Shown here: piece after piece, positions 2,586-44,861 of the stretch
How positions within the stretch are numbered: position 1 is the stretch's first letter
How the letters are laid out: every line of letters begins with the position of its first letter
Virus record (IMG/VR): IMGVR_UViG_3300032235_000623
Coordinates: 44,850-108,849 of that record
From: a virus
Reading direction: 5' to 3' (one strand)
DNA: 64,000 bases
Program-made: the position numbers and the translations under genes
The notes under the pieces: model-generated
What the model was told of the DNA's origin: nothing
Seen by the model: the letters and a program-made list of their open reading frames with translations, nothing else
Databases searched by the model: none

Positions 2586-3065
2586 ATGGGTATGCAAACA
2601 TTTCTTCCACACAAAGACTTTTCCGAGACAGCAAAACATTTAGACCGTAAGCGTTTAATCAAGCAGAGTGTAGAAAACCTTCAGGTACTTAAGTCTCTCT
2701 CTGGACACTACGATAAAACTGGTGCTTGGGTAAACCACCCAGCAGTAAAGATGTGGCGTGGTCACGAAGACTGGCTATTCTTATATAACGAGGCAATTGT
2801 AAGAGAGATTATTCTTAGAGGGTATAAGAATAGCACAAGAGAAACATTTGACTCAATCTATCAAGAGAATTTTATTGCTCTTGAGTCTGATTCACCTTGG
2901 TGGCTTGGTAATGAGAGCCTCCACTACTCTCATAAGGGTAGATTATACGAAAAAGATCAAGAATCATATTATTTCTATGCGGAATTTGCTGATTATAAGG
3001 AATTAGGATATACTTGCTGCGTGTCCTGCAACTATTACTGGCCTACTCATGTGGAGAATCTATGA
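2586..3065 (+). CDS. Pyrimidine-dimer DNA glycosylase / MSMEG_6728 family
   Basis: MQTFLP..LD.KRL.KQ..E..Q and HPAVKMWRG motifs. Confidence 0.8.
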   Translation: MGMQTFLPHKDFSETAKHLDRKRLIKQSVENLQVLKSLSGHYDKTGAWVNHPAVKMWRGHEDWLFLYNEAIVREIILRGYKNSTRETFDSIYQENFIALESDSPWWLGNESLHYSHKGRLYEKDQESYYFYAEFADYKELGYTCCVSCNYYWPTHVENL

Positions 3066-3528: not shown

Positions 3529-3578
3529 AATTCTGTGCCTAACAATGGGGGCAGATAAATTAAGGAGAAAGAAATTAA

Positions 3579-4685
3579 ATGAAGTCATTTAATAAAATCG
3601 CACTAGCCATGGTTGCAGCCATGGCTATGGGCACAATCGTAGCAACACCTGCAAGTGCTGCTGTAATGACAGTCGCTGTAACTCTTGATGGAACGGCTAA
3701 TACAACCGCTTCCTCAGTTTCTACACCTGCTGCATTGCCAGTTCCTGCAGACAACTCAGTTGATGCTGCTGACGCACTTAAGTTTGTAGCAACAGTTGAC
3801 ACAGGAACATCAGTTTCTGTAACAGCAACAAATGCAACAATCGTGTCTGCACTACACACATCTGCTGCACCAGTCGGAGCATCATCAGGATCATCATCTT
3901 TGACAATTGCTACTGGTACAGGAACAACTGCAACATTTTATGTCTACACAAAGACAACAGCAATTGGTACAGTTGTAGTTACAAACCAGGGAACACAACT
4001 TACATACTACGTACAGGGTACTGCTGGCAAGATTAATAACCTTGCTGTTTCAGCACCAGCAAACGGTGCTGCTGGAACAAAGCAGGATATTACAGTTACT
4101 GCAACAGACGTATTCGGAAACAAGGTTTCTGGTAAGTCAATTACAGCAACAGTATTTGCTTCAACAGCAACACTTGATACAGCAACAGCAACAACTGGTG
4201 CTACTCTTTCAGACTTTGGAGTTGCAAAGTTTTCTGCAACACTTCCAACAACTGGAACACGATCACTTATTACATTTGCACCAACAAACTCAGGAGATGC
4301 AACATCTGCTGATGTAACTGGTTTAACTGCTCGTACTCTTGCACCTTTTGCAGAGATTGCAGTTCGTGATCTAGTATCAGAACTTGCTGCACAGACAGCT
4401 GCTAAGACAGCTGCTGAAAGAGCTCTTGCAGATGCAGTAGCAAAGGCTGCATCTGATTCAGCAGCAGCAAAGGCTGCAGCAGAAGCAGCAGCTCTAACAG
4501 CTGCAGCAGAAATTGCTAAGCTAAAGGCAGAAGCTGTAACAGCAAAGCTTGCACACGATGCAGAAATTGCTAAGCTAAAGGCGGATAATGCGGTAGCGAT
4601 TAAGGCAATCAAGGATGCTTTCAATAAGTTGGCTCGCCAATGGAATGCAAAGAATCCAAAGTCAAAAGTTACTCTAGTAAAGTAA
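3579..4685 (+). CDS. Secreted Ala/Thr-rich surface-type protein with Ig-like repeats and a C-terminal coiled coil
   Basis: Signal peptide ending PASA; beta-rich Thr/Val/Ala segments (ATDVFGN); AAKA coiled coil; AAGGAG RBS. Confidence 0.7.
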   Translation: MKSFNKIALAMVAAMAMGTIVATPASAAVMTVAVTLDGTANTTASSVSTPAALPVPADNSVDAADALKFVATVDTGTSVSVTATNATIVSALHTSAAPVGASSGSSSLTIATGTGTTATFYVYTKTTAIGTVVVTNQGTQLTYYVQGTAGKINNLAVSAPANGAAGTKQDITVTATDVFGNKVSGKSITATVFASTATLDTATATTGATLSDFGVAKFSATLPTTGTRSLITFAPTNSGDATSADVTGLTARTLAPFAEIAVRDLVSELAAQTAAKTAAERALADAVAKAASDSAAAKAAAEAAALTAAAEIAKLKAEAVTAKLAHDAEIAKLKADNAVAIKAIKDAFNKLARQWNAKNPKSKVTLVK

Positions 4686-15816: not shown

Positions 15817-15977
15817 TATCGGCACACTCGCTTTGTTACATATTTGTAATATGTATATGCTTTAGAAGATTTATCCTTAACTTGATATCTCTTATATGTA
15901 CATACCTCAGCATTTGCTGGGGCGGAAACAATAGGAAGTAATCCTAGTATAATACCTGCGATAATAGTTTTACGCAT
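15816..15977 (-). CDS. Small secreted protein
   Basis: Signal peptide MRKTII..ANA, two Cys, RBS AACGAAAGGA. Confidence 0.55.
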   Translation of the reverse strand: MRKTIIAGIILGLLPIVSAPANAEVCTYKRYQVKDKSSKAYTYYKYVTKRVCR

Positions 15978-16222
15978 TTTATATCCTTTCGTTGATATAA
16001 GAGAATTATACATTGGACCACCGACAAATGGAATAGATATGCTGTGTGAATTGGACCACATTGTTAGGTTTTGATCAAAGCTTGTTAGGTTTAATTAGAT
16101 CTATTGTTAGATTTTATCAATCATTGTTAGGTTTGTGGTCAATATCACAGAATTTCAGGAGATTTTGACTTGACCTCGTAAAAGAAATAATGTACTCTCT
16201 TGTCTTTGTGGGCATAAAAAGA

Positions 16223-16256
16223 TCCCCCGCCGATACCGCAGTATCAAGCGGGGGAA
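16223..16256 (-). terminator. Intrinsic terminator
   Basis: GC-rich hairpin followed by a T-run on the minus strand. Confidence 0.65.
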
Positions 16257-16261
16257 TTATA

Positions 16262-16347
16262 GTAGGGCTGCCTGGCCAAACGAAAGGAATTAAGTAAATG
16301 CCTGCGTACTTAGCGACTTGGCGAATGCCTTAGTAGCCGCACCCCAC
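16262..16347 (-). ncRNA. Candidate structured small RNA carrying an anti-RBS sequence
   Basis: Nested stems with G-U pairs favouring the minus strand; unpaired UUCCUUUCGUU. Confidence 0.45.
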
Positions 16348-16382
16348 ATCCAAAGACAAACTAGTTGCCTAGGATTATTATA

Positions 16383-16787
16383 TCATACTGGAAGAAGTTC
16401 GTCCGAATACTTTTCACAGAATGCGGACAGGTCCATGGTAAATAAAGCCTCATTCTTCATTCCACGTACCTTGTTTGACTGATTCCTAAAGTCATCTTGC
16501 TCATGAAGACTAAAGGTTTGGTCCTTCCAATTAATTACAGGAATCTTGTGCTCATTGTCTGATAGAGAGTTGACCTGTAGACCCCAGCCAGTCTCCATAT
16601 TCCATTGGTCACCAATTAGACGTGATGTAGCAATGCGTGTTGCATATGAATCATCGTTCCAACGTGCTCGTGCATGGACTACAGCATCCGCTAAATTCTT
16701 TAGCATGTCATAGCCAGCCCAGTGTCCGTATAGTACAATTGTCTCTCCGCTATCCTGTACGAATACGAAGTTTGCTCTGTTACCCAT
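16383..16787 (-). CDS. Hypothetical early protein
   Basis: MGNRANF..LYGHWAG pattern. Confidence 0.6.
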   Translation of the reverse strand: MGNRANFVFVQDSGETIVLYGHWAGYDMLKNLADAVVHARARWNDDSYATRIATSRLIGDQWNMETGWGLQVNSLSDNEHKIPVINWKDQTFSLHEQDDFRNQSNKVRGMKNEALFTMDLSAFCEKYSDELLPV

Positions 16788-17350: not shown

Positions 17351-18006
17351 TAGTAAGCCTCACGAACATGGCAGACTTCTTGCTCATCAATAACGATGTT
17401 GCCATCCTGTGCATCGACATATAGCGCATCTGTAATTTCTGATTCAAGGTCATAATCTTCTAATAGATTTAGTGTAATTGTTCCGCTAACTTCAACAGTT
17501 GCGGTAAATTCCACATCCTTGGTTAATTCAATGCCAAGCGCTTCAGCAATTGACTGCAAAGTATCTTGGTCGTCTGAATCAGCATATGACTCAAGAATAA
17601 TATCTTTAACTGTATTAATCTTAGACTGAAGCAGGCTAACAGTTTTCTGTGACTGTCGTCCATTGTGCAGGTCCCACTCAAGAGATGCAACCTTTGATGT
17701 TGTATATTCAGGGTCAGAATATCCGTGAATAACTTTATATGTAACTAGTAAATCAGGATTGTAAGCAACTGCAGGTGAATGAAATGCATCTGAGCCAATT
17801 GTTGTTGTTTCCATCGTTTCCTCTTTCGTTGTAGTTATAGGTGGTATTGTAGCATCTTCCACTGACAATAATGTGCAATTAGAGTTGCAACGACATGTGA
17901 GGTCCATCACACCCGCTGGCCATCCATATCCATCTTTAATTGTATATTCGATTAAAGCATCACAGTCTCCCGTGCATACCCAGGTGTATTTCTGATATGT
18001 TGTCAT
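17350..18006 (-). CDS. Hypothetical protein with a long (18006) and a short (17814) in-frame start
   Basis: Two promoters and an internal RBS in one frame. Confidence 0.6.
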   Translation of the reverse strand: MTTYQKYTWVCTGDCDALIEYTIKDGYGWPAGVMDLTCRCNSNCTLLSVEDATIPPITTTKEETMETTTIGSDAFHSPAVAYNPDLLVTYKVIHGYSDPEYTTSKVASLEWDLHNGRQSQKTVSLLQSKINTVKDIILESYADSDDQDTLQSIAEALGIELTKDVEFTATVEVSGTITLNLLEDYDLESEITDALYVDAQDGNIVIDEQEVCHVREAY

Positions 18007-18131
18007 GGCGAGTATTGTACAGGACCCCACTGACATTTACAAGGATTTTCGGGAAAAAGCTTTGTGATACGTAACACATTTTTTTGGCCTTCAGATCTGG
18101 GGGCATCTCATTATCTGAGATTCAAATCTTG

Positions 18132-18205
18132 CGATCTGTATGGGACTTGAACCCACGACCTCTACCGTGACAGGGTAGCGCTCTAACCAACTGAGCTAAC
18201 AGACC
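18132..18205 (-). tRNA. tRNA-Asp(GTC)
   Basis: Acceptor GGTCTGT/ACAGATC, anticodon loop CTGTCAC, GGTTCAA T-loop; CCA not encoded. Confidence 0.92.
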
Positions 18206-21456: not shown

Positions 21457-21793
21457 TGTTTTACCTTTCGTTTGTGTTATGCGAGTATTATAGCGGAATG
21501 CTCTGACAAATCATAATCCATTTACGGCGTGTCGCAGCTTTTGTGATAAACCTCACAAATTTTCAGGGTTTTCCACAGGTACCCGTAAATTGTGGATAAC
21601 CCCCACGCCTTTGCGGGCATTTAGTTGAAATTTCAACTAATTAAAAAATGGAGCTACAAGATCACAATAAGTTTTTAAATATTTTTCTTTTTTGTGTTTT
21701 GTTTTGCGTGTGTATTTTTTCTTTGAGGGGATCGGAGTCGCCGCATTACTGCGGCGCAACTCCTGAACCTTCTTTACTTTTTCTGTTGCCATT

Positions 21794-21991: not shown

Positions 21992-22194
21992 ACTGTTACA
22001 ACCTTTCGTCCTTCACGATAGAAAATTTTTGTGTAGCATTTTGCAGATGGTGTAAAGATATTTACAGTTGAGTATTCGTTAGCGAAACCCCAATCTGTGA
22101 AAGCAAAAAAATCTTTCCATGCTGCCATTTCATCATCATATTCATGAGACCAATGCGGAGCATTTGAATCATAAGCCAAAGTAATTTTATACAT
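21988..22194 (-). CDS. Hypothetical early protein
   Basis: ATGA overlap with the next gene. Confidence 0.5.
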   Translation of the reverse strand: MYKITLAYDSNAPHWSHEYDDEMAAWKDFFAFTDWGFANEYSTVNIFTPSAKCYTKIFYREGRKVVTV

Positions 22195-22562
22195 TAGATA
22201 TTCCAATCGTCTAGAGCACACTCACACGCTTCTACATCATAATTATTTTCATCTCCCCAAAATAGGAAACCTGCACCACCGCACTCATCACAAGCAACGG
22301 CAATAATTTCTTTTAAGTCTGACATTAGTTTTCCTTTCGTTCTGTTGTTGAAATTGTAGCAGATAGCACCGACAAGGCTTCGGATTTGCTTGCTTGGCGT
22401 GTCGCTAGGATATGAGCCTTAAATTCTTCTAGGTTCATTAGAGAGCACCTTCCTGAAATAACTCGATTTCGATATCTAACTTTTTTTCATCTGATAATTC
22501 ATCGAACGAAACCCAGCCTGCGCCTTCTTCGTCCATTTTAAAAAATTCAATGTATCCCATTA

Positions 22563-22766: not shown

Positions 22767-23163
22767 GGTGTCCGCCTTTCGTTTGTTTCTATATCTGGAA
22801 TTATACACGAACGGACTGACATTTTCCAATTTGGCAAGGGTTTGTCTCAATATGTGGAGCGTGGGCTATGTGATAAGCATCACACGCCTAATGTGATAAC
22901 CATCACACCAAAATGTCCGTTTTGTCTGTCAAATCGACACGCCGTAGAATTTGGGGCTTTTGATAACGATTACGTAACGACACGCCCGACGCCGCAGTAT
23001 TTGCGGGCCAGCTTGATTTTGTCAAGTCGACACGCCGTTAGTTAGCGAAAATCTTTTATGACTTCCCTCACATCTTGTTTTAATTCGTGCCACATCATGC
23101 GCCCCATATATAGGGCGGGGATCGCAAGGGCTAATTGTACTAGTGTGGTTAGTAGTCTATTCA

Positions 23164-23352: not shown

Positions 23353-23604
23353 TACTTATTTACCTCTACTTCTCTAACGATAAAGGAAAACCCTTTACCT
23401 AATTTGTTTAGTTCTTCAATTACGGCTAAGATTTCTTCGGGCTTATTAGCCTTGTTATTAACGCTTAGTAGTTGAGAGCCTTGCCATAGTGAGTAAGTGA
23501 TAGTCATTCGTTTTCTTCTTTCGTTAGTTTGTTTAATAAGATTAAGGTACTACATAGGGCTGACATTTGCAACCCTAAAGGGGGTGTGTTGCGTGTGAGT
23601 TACC

Positions 23605-23760: not shown

Positions 23761-24351
23761 TTGTGACTCCTTTCGTTTATTTATTAGGATAATCTTTTCA
23801 TACTTATTTAATTTTTTCAAGTCTATTTGGTGTGGTGTCTATCACACTAGGCTAGGGGACTTATCGTAGGTGTAGCCTACGCCTGTCTCATAGTATGCGA
23901 ACATCTGTTCGGTTTTATGAGTTCTATCTACTGTGCAGAACATGTCCTGCGGTTCGCCTGTCCAATTACAGGAGAGGCACTTACTTACTAGGTGTGATAA
24001 TACTTTTGTCATTTTCTGACCTTTCTAGTTAATCACCTTGATTAACTTTCTTTATACTATAATCATATAACGGGGGTCTGACAAAAATCAAGTCGCAACA
24101 CGGATAAATCGGACATTTTGAAAACTAATTTCAAAAAACCCTGTGATATGCCTCACAAACATGGGCGCACTATCCGAAATGTCCGAATTTCTACAGGTGT
24201 GTATCATACAAATAAAAAATTTATTAACATTTTTAGAAATCTGATTTTGCAGCTGATCGCAAAAACGCAAAATTCAAAAAAATATTTTTATTAACATTTC
24301 ATAAACTTGAAATATCAGTTGACTAGAATTTAATTGATATATAATAGATAC

Positions 24352-25401: not shown

Positions 25402-25476
25402 GGACCACTAGCTTAATCAGGTTAAAGCAATTGTCTTATATACAATCGAGTTTCGGTTCAAATCCGAAGTGGTCTA
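25402..25476 (+). tRNA. tRNA-Ile(TAT)
   Basis: Acceptor GGACCAC/GTGGTCT, D-stem GCTT/AAGC, anticodon stem ATTGT/ACAAT with loop CTTATAT, T-arm TTCGG-TTCAAAT-CCGAA. Confidence 0.8.
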
Positions 25477-25525
25477 CAAATAAAACGGGGGGATTCAGAG
25501 ATATCATCTCTGGTCTAAATAACCC

Positions 25526-44158: not shown

Positions 44159-44861
44159 GCATAAAGAAGAATGTTTTACCATTGAAAACTTTTTAACAGA
44201 GCATGAGTGCAAAGCAATAATAGCTTATACAGAGTGGCTTGTAGCAAACAATATACTTGAGTGGAACCAAATCTCATTCTATGATTCATATGCTATGGGT
44301 TTTTGGCCATATGACGATAATCTTGAATACTTTGGATTACCAAAAAATTATTTCCATGATGTTTTAAAATTAAAAATTAAAGATGCTTGTGAAAATGTTC
44401 TAGGTAAAGATGTAGCAGAAGTTAGCTATCATGCCCAAAAATGGTTGCCAGGGGCATACGCATCTTTTCATTCAGACAACTCTGACGAAGATGGTAACCC
44501 AACAGAATTTGAAAGAAGTAAGTATGCTGCATTTATATATTTAAATGAAGACTTCTCTGGAGGTTATTTAAACTTTAAGCATCATGATGTTCATATAGAT
44601 CCAAAACAAGGCATGTTAGCTATATTTGCTGGAGGACATACTAATGAGCATGAGGTCACTAAGGTTCACGGTGGAACAAGATATACAATTGGATCTTTTT
44701 GGGATAACGCTGATATAGAGTACACTGAAGAGCAGATTAAAGAGCGTGAAGAAAGACTAAAAAAGACTAGAGCGGATCAAGATGAAATGTATAGAAAGTG
44801 GCAAGAAGAAAAAGAAAATGGCATTGTCCAAGAGTACACTGGAAAGTATGGTGAGAAGTGA
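44142..44861 (+). CDS. Prolyl-4-hydroxylase-like 2OG-Fe(II) oxygenase
   Basis: HSD..YLNEDFSGG..HEV..GTR. Confidence 0.9.
   Translation: MSQITKHKEECFTIENFLTEHECKAIIAYTEWLVANNILEWNQISFYDSYAMGFWPYDDNLEYFGLPKNYFHDVLKLKIKDACENVLGKDVAEVSYHAQKWLPGAYASFHSDNSDEDGNPTEFERSKYAAFIYLNEDFSGGYLNFKHHDVHIDPKQGMLAIFAGGHTNEHEVTKVHGGTRYTIGSFWDNADIEYTEEQIKEREERLKKTRADQDEMYRKWQEEKENGIVQEYTGKYGEK

Follow-up and report, generated by a model that had tools for sequence, protein, structure and literature searches.

A conserved structured RNA of freshwater phages with a loop complementary to early ribosome-binding sites

Does the short intergenic segment behind a gene for a protein of 134 amino acids (aa) in an actinophage encode a regulatory RNA, and which messages could such an RNA address? 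The question was raised by a stretch of 64,000 nucleotides, here called the window, which comprises positions 44,850 to 108,849 of IMG/VR virus record IMGVR_UViG_3300032235_000623, a genome of 108.8 kb with 37% G+C. The phage is an actinophage, its portal protein being 57% identical to that of the Streptomyces BE-cluster phages (Stanwilliamsviridae). An earlier note on this DNA had proposed that the segment 16262-16347 encodes, on the minus strand, a folded RNA which displays the complement of a ribosome-binding site (RBS) shared by early genes and which acts in trans. Among the points set beforehand as tests of this proposal were that structure and anti-RBS are kept in relatives and that the anti-RBS is not buried in the fold. 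We conclude that the segment very probably belongs to a real, conserved and structured phage RNA gene that was hitherto undescribed.

The RNA gene and its conservation

The 134-aa protein was used as a query and retrieved 35 viral loci with 53-93% identity; a homologous element was found directly 3' of the gene in all of them. A covariance model, R1, was built from 26 distinct copies and detected a single copy at each locus; the window, like the whole genome, also holds just one. The window element reached 68 bits (E = 5e-16) and contained the features P1-P2-J2/3-P3 with GGUGC, UAA[G/A]UAA and GCAGCC. Throughout the family, the element is located on the same strand as the 134-aa gene and directly downstream of it. 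Structural-pattern searches revealed matches at this location in at least 120 uncultured freshwater IMG/VR phage contigs, and a scaffold-only pattern, in which loop L3 was left free, gave at least 122 matches in the viral collection. In bacterial genomes, the pattern was found only on three short contigs of metagenome-assembled genomes, with flanking phage sequences the same as those of viral contigs. These three contigs (loci L159-L161), each of about 3 kb, were binned to Bacteroidia, Polynucleobacter and one unnamed bacterium; probably, they are mis-binned phage contigs.

Known families were searched as well. Between 15000 and 19000 of the window, Rfam models gave only tRNAs and the terminator look-alike NsiR1 (20.8 bits, threshold 39) up to E = 10, and in nine relatives no family matched the RNA up to E = 5, tRNAs apart. 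ARAGORN reported neither a tRNA nor a transfer-messenger RNA (tmRNA) at the element, and the covariance models of C4 antisense RNA and 6C RNA matched neither the window nor the nine relatives. With the region as query, megablast found nothing among phage records, and a distant blastn search returned tRNA-Asp only.

Folding of the single window sequence was unremarkable on either strand (z = -1.8 for the minus and -1.6 for the plus strand); the structural case therefore depends on the relatives. In the model alignment, 97.5% of the cells of P1, P2 and P3 were paired, with compensatory changes at 9/17 pairs. P1 was paired in 96% of cells (compensatory changes at four of six pairs), P2 in 98.7% (exchanges AU/GC/CG and GU/AU/UA/UG/CG at two pairs) and P3 in 97.7% (compensatory changes at three of five pairs). 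RNAalifold predicted the same three helices on its own, P1 among them. The observed covariation score or paired percentage was reached by none of 500 shuffles, and pairing fell to 27-50% when partners were slid against each other. According to the family consensus, P1 has 6-7 bp and ends in GGU/GCC; P2 abuts it as GCnnCU/AGnnGC, with an extra tip present or absent; J2/3 comprises 8 nt, UAA[G/A]UAAn; and P3 is formed by GCAGG/CCU(A)GC with a conserved bulge, a single A standing between it and the 3' strand of P1.

G-U pairs are frequent in these helices and fix the RNA strand as minus; that these pairs work on this strand only had been stated in the earlier note. Two of the four stems proposed there were recovered, GUGGGGU/GCCCUAC as P1 and GGC/GCC as the tip of P2. 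The stem GGCUA/UGGCC was rejected by covariation, since GCGGCU pairs with AGUCGC in P2 and GGCC belongs to P3. UAAGUA/UACUUA, which would join J2/3 to L3, needs a loop insertion found only in the subgroup of the window and is possible there alone. A J2/3-L3 pseudoknot would comprise 7-8 bp in two of the subgroups and 4 bp in the remaining members; for the family, 5.5 bp as compared to 4.7 bp in shuffles is a weak difference. A K-turn in P2 was considered and discarded, as the sequence reads without tandem G-A pairs.

The compensatory changes and G-U pairs, which fit a minus-strand RNA, also bear on the alternative that the segment encodes an 11-codon peptide on the plus strand (16298-16333) behind a perfect RBS. 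In the window, AACGAAAGGA indeed lies 9 nt before a plus-strand ATG, but this ATG stands in an 11-nt insertion of the window's subgroup and most relatives have no start codon at this place, which leaves the peptide hardly any probability. Short minus-strand open reading frames (ORFs) beginning in P1 were also dismissed: AUG occurs in some members only, the frames differ and there is no Shine-Dalgarno (SD) sequence.

The RNA apparently carries its own signals for transcription (Table 1). The TGA stop codon of the 134-aa gene supplies the TG of the extended -10 element, so that both signals overlap, and transcription would start at about 16371-16369. The 5' end of the junction RNA, GUGGGGU (16347), lies about 25 nt downstream of the -10 element, and its 3' end is GCCCUAC (16262). 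Directly 3' on the minus strand, where a terminator had been noted before, a strong hairpin with a U-run was found at 16254-16216. Among 82 distinct members with enough flanking sequence, 68 have an upstream TAnAAT -10 element, 55 of these 68 also with TGn, mostly 30-45 nt 5' of GGUGC; a terminator (hairpin of -8 kcal/mol or lower plus a T-run within 80 nt) is present in 57/82. A simple sigma-70 promoter/terminator scan lists neither signal of the window RNA. It missed the promoter because it requires a -35 element, which this promoter does not have, and the terminator because its stem is interrupted. A predicted promoter of its own and a Rho-independent terminator are features also of trans-acting base-pairing small RNAs (sRNAs), and the RNA would probably be expressed as a discrete molecule.

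Small shares of a 4-kb stretch were present in six RNA runs, and four lake metatranscriptomes were compared in the form of contigs. The contigs match neighbouring ORFs of related phages and bins over the RNA were nearly empty; such contigs show neither ends nor levels, and RNAs that are small and structured tend to be lost. A single contig of 225 nt covers 16316-16535.

Furthermore, these data concern the possibility of a cis-acting element, either a structured 3' untranslated region that stabilises or terminates the mRNA of the 134-aa gene, or a leader whose anti-RBS, on read-through of the terminator, would mask the RBS belonging to the following gene (ATG 15977). We consider this quite unlikely. 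The RNA does always lie directly 3' of the same gene, one metatranscriptome contig extends from the upstream gene into its first 34 nt, and about 14 of the 82 members without a recognisable -10 element would need co-transcription with the upstream gene; most members, however, have their own promoter and a strong terminator. Likewise, the next downstream gene always possesses a matching RBS, CAACGAAAGGA or AGCGAAAGGA, but this RBS lies about 230 nt away from the terminator, and the interval holds one or more additional conserved promoter-like blocks. In Streptomyces phages, only the genome end follows the RNA; its own promoter is TTGACA-17-TAACAT, and the strand carries no gene downstream of it.

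Loop L3 and the ribosome-binding sites of early genes

The apical loop L3 of P3 contains the anti-RBS. As described before, a single copy of the RBS word is present in opposite orientation, AACGAAAGGAA on the plus strand at 16279-16289, and the minus-strand transcript reads UUCCUUUCGUU. The octamer CUUUCGUU was found in L3 at 35/35 neighbour-protein loci and in 120 of the 122 scaffold-pattern matches listed, a pattern that leaves L3 unspecified; structure and anti-RBS are kept in relatives. One of the two remaining matches carries the loop CUUUCGAU, the other one (L162) an unrelated loop. The loop is constrained whereas stem sequences drift.

The mean opening energy of the octamer was 1.6 kcal/mol as compared to a median of 4.2 kcal/mol for other 8-mers, and in the commonest short form of the RNA it ranked first or second in accessibility. 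The anti-RBS is thus predicted not to be buried. Four loop classes were distinguished. In the class of the window, the whole 23-nt loop is unpaired; in the other three (B-D), the flanks form a stem of 3-6 bp around a UUCGUU hexaloop and co-vary (CCU/GAGG, UACU/GGUA, AUUUCU/GGAAAU). The invariant part of the loop consists of the hexaloop together with the C-G and U-G pairs that close it; antisense recognition loops follow a YUNR pattern, which UUCG matches. A conserved and, by prediction, single-stranded seed of this kind is again a property of trans-acting base-pairing sRNAs.

All eight early RBSs noted before could be confirmed, and one more was found: (A)ACGAAAG(G) stands before nine minus-strand early genes, each time 7-11 nt 5' of ATG. 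The respective copies of ACGAAAG are located at 15992, 17829, 21151, 21471, 22009, 22340, 22782, 23524 and 23776. In the whole 108.8-kb genome this word occurs ten times on the minus strand, nine times between 15992 and 23776 before small early genes. The 9-mer AACGAAAGG occurs six times on the minus and once on the plus strand, about 0.8 copies being expected by an estimate from base composition. A crude gene call assigned (A)ACGAAAGG, CCGAAAGG or AGAAAGG to the minus-strand early genes and AAGGAG or GGAGG to plus-strand genes. Furthermore, AACGAAAGG recurs in every relative locus examined, and each of three near-complete relatives has a cluster of six to seven copies on its early strand (controls, 0-2 copies). 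Some relatives (L003 977, L004 824, L008 1014) contain terminator-like hairpins GGGGCC-CGAAAG-GGCCCC with a C(GAAA)G tetraloop, which share CGAAAG with the RBS motif; as these hairpins do not serve as ribosome sites, RBS counts should exclude them.

Duplex energies were calculated for L3 of the window against both genome strands (about 72,000 windows; mean -4.4, standard deviation 2.5 kcal/mol). After its own antisense strand, the top partners of L3 were early RBSs with -17.6, -17.3, -16.1, -15.2, -15.0 and -14.5 kcal/mol. The nine early RBSs of the window form 8-14 bp with the loop at -9 to -17.6 kcal/mol. Complementary sites are thus found at the predicted translation-initiation regions of several mRNAs, as expected for trans-acting sRNAs.

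Actinobacterial 16S rRNA ends in CCUCCUUUCU; GAAAGG therefore pairs with the very end of 16S rRNA and the AAC prefix of the early RBS cannot. This prefix finds its complement in the UUCGUU part of the loop.

We propose that the loop pairs in trans with AACGAAAGG early ribosome sites and damps their translation, a reading that is better supported than its rivals and about as likely as not. A small RNA would be transcribed from its own extended -10 promoter, ended by the intrinsic terminator and folded into a three-way junction, with the apical loop of P3 presenting CUUUCGUU, read as UUCCUUUCGUU in the window phage. This loop would pair in trans with the extended SD region AACGAAAGG(A) on a subset of early mRNAs. 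First contact would be made by UUCGUU with AACGAA, a stretch that the 16S rRNA tail cannot pair, and pairing would then spread into the GAAAGG core. The duplex would block binding of the 30S subunit, and early protein synthesis would be damped or shut off as the stable RNA accumulates; late genes with AAGGAG/GGAGG sites would be spared. Pairing in vivo, with repression as the direction of the effect, is what we infer from the predicted accessibility of the loop and its complementarity to the early sites.

Homologues in Streptomyces phages and the role of the scaffold

In the Streptomyces phage Wofford, the freshwater model matched the minus strand at 797-865, within the terminal repeat, with 22.7 bits. 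The match was reciprocal, as a model built from 13 Streptomyces-phage copies of the RNA hit this site in members of the freshwater group (E = 4e-5 and 6e-4). BLAST revealed the homologous stretch in 83 cultured Streptomyces phage records, unannotated in nearly all among those listed; two matches per record were obtained because the element sits in the terminal repeat. In 13 diverse copies, a promoter TTGACA-17-TAACAT or TACACT was present, P1, P2, P2b and P3 were 99% paired with seven compensatory pairs, and J2/3 was UUAAAUA or UUAAUUA.

Like the window RNA, the BE-cluster homologue consists of P1, P2 (CUAUCAGUC...GGCRAG), J2/3 UUAAAUA, P3, A/U and P1' and has its own promoter; the neighbourhood is shared too, both RNAs lying in the early region, downstream of the DUF945 gene and a few small early genes. 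The P2 plus J2/3 module is thus common to both RNAs. The homologue contains an invariant ACCUUUCAAU 3' of P1, which is able to pair with L3 (AAGGU), and its CCUUUC motif is located in the 3' tail, not in the loop. The bases of this putative L3-tail pseudoknot are invariant and give no covariation signal. A second deviation was observed among the freshwater members themselves: L162 keeps the scaffold behind a promoter TTGACG-17-TACAAT and carries a different loop (Table 1). Since the Streptomyces homologues and this freshwater member carry other loops, the scaffold does more than display an antisense seed. Judged from these sequences, the scaffold predates the anti-RBS loop and must have a value of its own, and the loop of the freshwater RNA seems to have been adapted later to a flavour of RBS that already existed.

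Several observations weigh against regulation by pairing of the loop with early RBSs. L3 of the Streptomyces homologue is A(A/U)GGUCGG and not an anti-RBS; the complement TTGAAAGG of its tail motif is not enriched in Wofford, TTGAAAGG/TGAAAGGT show no enrichment over control, and the extended RBS complement is not enriched in this phage either. The L162 loop has no complementary RBS in 14.7 kb. The RBS motif is independent of the loop, because AACGAAAGG-type RBSs are present in phage DSL-LC01 (four copies), where the model finds no such RNA, and ACGA(A/G)AGG sites precede early genes of Wofford. In the window genome, several sites other than RBSs reach comparable duplex energies of -16 kcal/mol. 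Within the loop, CC opposite the SD GG is not kept, many members having AC or UC, and part of the loop conservation is intramolecular, because the flanks co-vary to close the small stem around UUCGUU. On the side of pairing there is a weak co-variation between RNA and RBS flanks: a C just 5' of the octamer goes with the matching RBS G in 92% of sites, an A or U at this position with G in 68-69%; this signal is confounded by phylogeny and the core is invariant.

The main rival explanation is a function centred on the scaffold: as a ribonucleoprotein (RNP) or decoy, the RNA would use P2, J2/3 and its junction to hold a protein of phage or host. The CCUUUC-type segment would then imitate the 16S 3' tail, for example to titrate a factor or nuclease that recognises the anti-SD tail, and the RBS complementarity would arise because the segment resembles the anti-SD. 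We consider such a function possible, if doubtful. Consistent with it, the junction bases GGUGC, CUA, AG, UAA[G/A]UAA and GCAGCC are conserved like the loop, which is unusual for a plain antisense RNA; soil Streptomyces and freshwater phages share P2 and J2/3 with reciprocal model matches while L3 differs; CCUUUC is exposed in both clades at different places (L3 and 3' tail); L162 retains the scaffold and its other loop again contains CCUC; and in Wofford the gene of the 134-aa homologue lies beside tmRNA in a block of tRNA genes, which hints at a link to translation. The freshwater octamer, however, exceeds the anti-SD by CGUU and matches the part of the RBS outside the SD, which 16S mimicry does not explain. 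Neither is a 16S-like helix conserved in the RNA, and for the protein of the constant neighbour gene neither a fold nor an RNA-binding family could be recognised. Mimicry of 16S helix 45 was tried and rejected: resemblances to it, such as GGUGCGGCU and CGGAAGGU, are confined to single sequences and lost across the family.

A broader version, which we regard as unlikely, would take the junction scaffold as the handle of a phage RNP or ribosome-associated RNA with an exchangeable anti-SD-like module, either L3 or the 3' tail. It might be a family-wide, RNA-guided device that changes the choice of mRNAs on which host ribosomes initiate at the early-to-late switch, or a mimic of the 16S tail by which a host factor directed against the anti-SD is disarmed; in both cases it would exceed a simple antisense RNA.

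In Wofford (L038, 2501-3197), the 134-aa homologue gp122 is followed directly by the tmRNA gene, within the tRNA gene block. Together with tRNA-Asp at a distance of 1.8 kb in the window and a P1 of 7 bp, like an acceptor stem, this could indicate that the RNA descends, as a remnant or reduced version, from a tRNA-like or tmRNA gene and occupies the tmRNA/tRNA slot. This idea is largely refuted and very improbable, as Wofford holds both the tmRNA and, elsewhere, the true homologue of the RNA. Besides, ARAGORN and Rfam were negative for the element in the window and in relatives, and the alignment reads without a T-arm, CCA end, conserved G3-U70 or conserved tag frame.

Because the unannotated homologue is present in 83 cultured, freely available Streptomyces phages, a bench test is possible at once.

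Neighbouring features and comparison with known systems

The constant left neighbour of the RNA encodes a protein whose structural model is confident (pLDDT 87) and which gave no Foldseek or VIA fold match (best Z = 3.5); no RNA-binding family was recognisable. The protein family is very large, with more than 1000 clusters at 90% identity, and the protein is 43% identical to its counterpart in the freshwater Actinomycetia phage DSL-LC01.

Table 1. Positions of the RNA, its parts, its candidate targets and other features (window positions unless a record is named)
Feature	Position	Strand	Remarks
Small RNA gene	~16370 to 16216	minus	~155 nt; predicted ends, from sequence
Extended -10 promoter TGATATAAT	16377-16385	minus	read from sequence
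Three-way-junction RNA	16347-16262	minus	
P1, 5' strand GUGGGGU	16341-16347	minus	pairs with 16268-16262
P2 hairpin	16313-16340	minus	GCGGCU (16340-16335) / AGUCGC (16318-16313); tip GGC-AUUC-GCC (16329-16320)
J2/3 junction strand UAAGUAC	16306-16312	minus	nearly invariant in alignments
P3 hairpin	16270-16305	minus	16305-16300 / 16276-16270 around conserved bulge; loop L3 = 16299-16277
Anti-RBS UUCCUUUCGUU in L3	16279-16289	minus	octamer CUUUCGUU at 16286-16279, nearly invariant in family
P1, 3' strand GCCCUAC	16262-16268	minus	preceded by single junction base A at 16269
Intrinsic terminator, G+C-rich hairpin then UCUUUUU	16216-16254	minus	long hairpin in minimum-free-energy fold
Candidate target RBS AACGAAAGG, next gene downstream	15985-15993	minus	ATG 15977; duplex -13.9 kcal/mol
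Candidate target RBS	17822-17830	minus	ATG 17814; duplex -10.4 kcal/mol
Candidate target RBS, best non-self L3 partner in genome	21144-21152	minus	ATG 21137; duplex -17.6 kcal/mol
Candidate target RBS	21464-21472	minus	ATG 21456; duplex -15.2 kcal/mol
Candidate target RBS GACGAAAGG	22002-22010	minus	ATG 21991; duplex -13.0 kcal/mol
Candidate target RBS	22333-22341	minus	ATG 22325; duplex about -16 kcal/mol
Candidate target RBS	22775-22783	minus	ATG 22766; duplex -15.0 kcal/mol
Candidate target RBS AACGAAAGA	23517-23525	minus	ATG 23507; duplex -9.2 kcal/mol
Candidate target RBS	23769-23777	minus	ATG 23760; duplex -17.3 kcal/mol
134-aa gene, constant left neighbour of RNA	16383-16787	minus	PHROG 31860; no Pfam family
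tRNA-Asp(GUC)	18131-18205	minus	same relative place in relatives
tRNA-Ile(UAU)	25402-25477	plus	
Divergent member L162	IMGVR_UViG_3300042350_004100, 2994-3059		keeps P1, P2, J2/3, P3; loop GAGCCUCGAAAACUC
Homologue in Wofford (L164, L165)	NC_048722.1, 785-867 and ~122578-122660	minus	direct terminal repeat

Three further elements were observed between the RNA and the next gene. A block conserved in all relatives follows the terminator (16214-16150, minus strand; e.g. L009, about 3545-3620) and reads GCCCnCAAA ... GAGGGTA[G/T/A]CAT ... TTACG ... GTCAA ... TTCC(C)TGAAAT; it resembles one or two promoters (a -10 like TAGCAT; TTACGn-17/18-TGAAAT) for the next early operon. From 16060 to 16134, between the RNA terminator and the next gene, four direct repeats (A/C)TTGTTAG(G/A)TTT are found on the plus strand at about 16060, 16081, 16103 and 16123 (minus-strand reading AAACCTAACAA), which may be operator or binding sites. 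At 16007-15985 on the minus strand, TTTGTC(G/A)G lies 10-11 nt 5' of a hexamer similar to TATAAT in front of the gene starting at 15977; a sigma-70 -35 element would need a longer spacing, and the motif is kept in a relative (L027, about 3585-3610).

We know of no account of how large lytic actinobacterial phages end their early programme, and of very few phage-encoded regulatory RNAs beyond the enterobacterial phages. The RNA family described here is abundant, shows clear covariation and is absent from Rfam.

In phage P1, the c4 RNA blocks translation of an mRNA of the phage itself by pairing in trans, through exposed segments, with its ribosome-binding region. Both c4 and the window RNA are phage-encoded structured small RNAs, and for the latter pairing at RBS regions of its own phage is proposed likewise. 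The c4 RNA acts on one operon (icd-ant) of a temperate phage and is cut from the transcript of that operon, whereas the window RNA has a predicted promoter and terminator of its own, a three-way junction and about nine dispersed candidate early targets. The C4 motif of phages P1/P7 was discussed previously (PMC2864571).

The 6C/B11 sRNA of Actinobacteria, a phylum that lacks Hfq, binds mRNAs through C-rich loops without a chaperone (PMC6486639). It resembles the window RNA in the actinobacterial host phylum, a pyrimidine-rich loop on a stable hairpin, purine-rich mRNA sites and many possible targets. 6C is chromosomal and has two hairpins with C-rich loops; in contrast, the window RNA is phage-borne and has one U/C-rich loop on a three-way junction, with a candidate seed that extends past the SD into the phage-specific AACG. 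In Firmicutes, sRNAs with C/U-rich loops (S. aureus RNAIII, RsaE/RoxS type) occlude SD sequences by anti-SD-like loops. They are host-encoded and without homology to the window RNA, whose targets would be the early regulon of the phage itself.

In phage T4, the translational repressor RegA and RegB, an endonuclease cutting GGAG, are early products, and both act on ribosome-binding regions of early mRNAs. The proposed logic of ending the early phase is the same, exerted by proteins in T4 and by an RNA here. If pairing of the loop holds true, it would point to a phage strategy in which early genes are marked with a private extension of their ribosome sites and are later addressed by a phage RNA; if the loop indeed silences AACGAAAGG-class sites, this RNA would be an RNA counterpart of T4 RegA/RegB.

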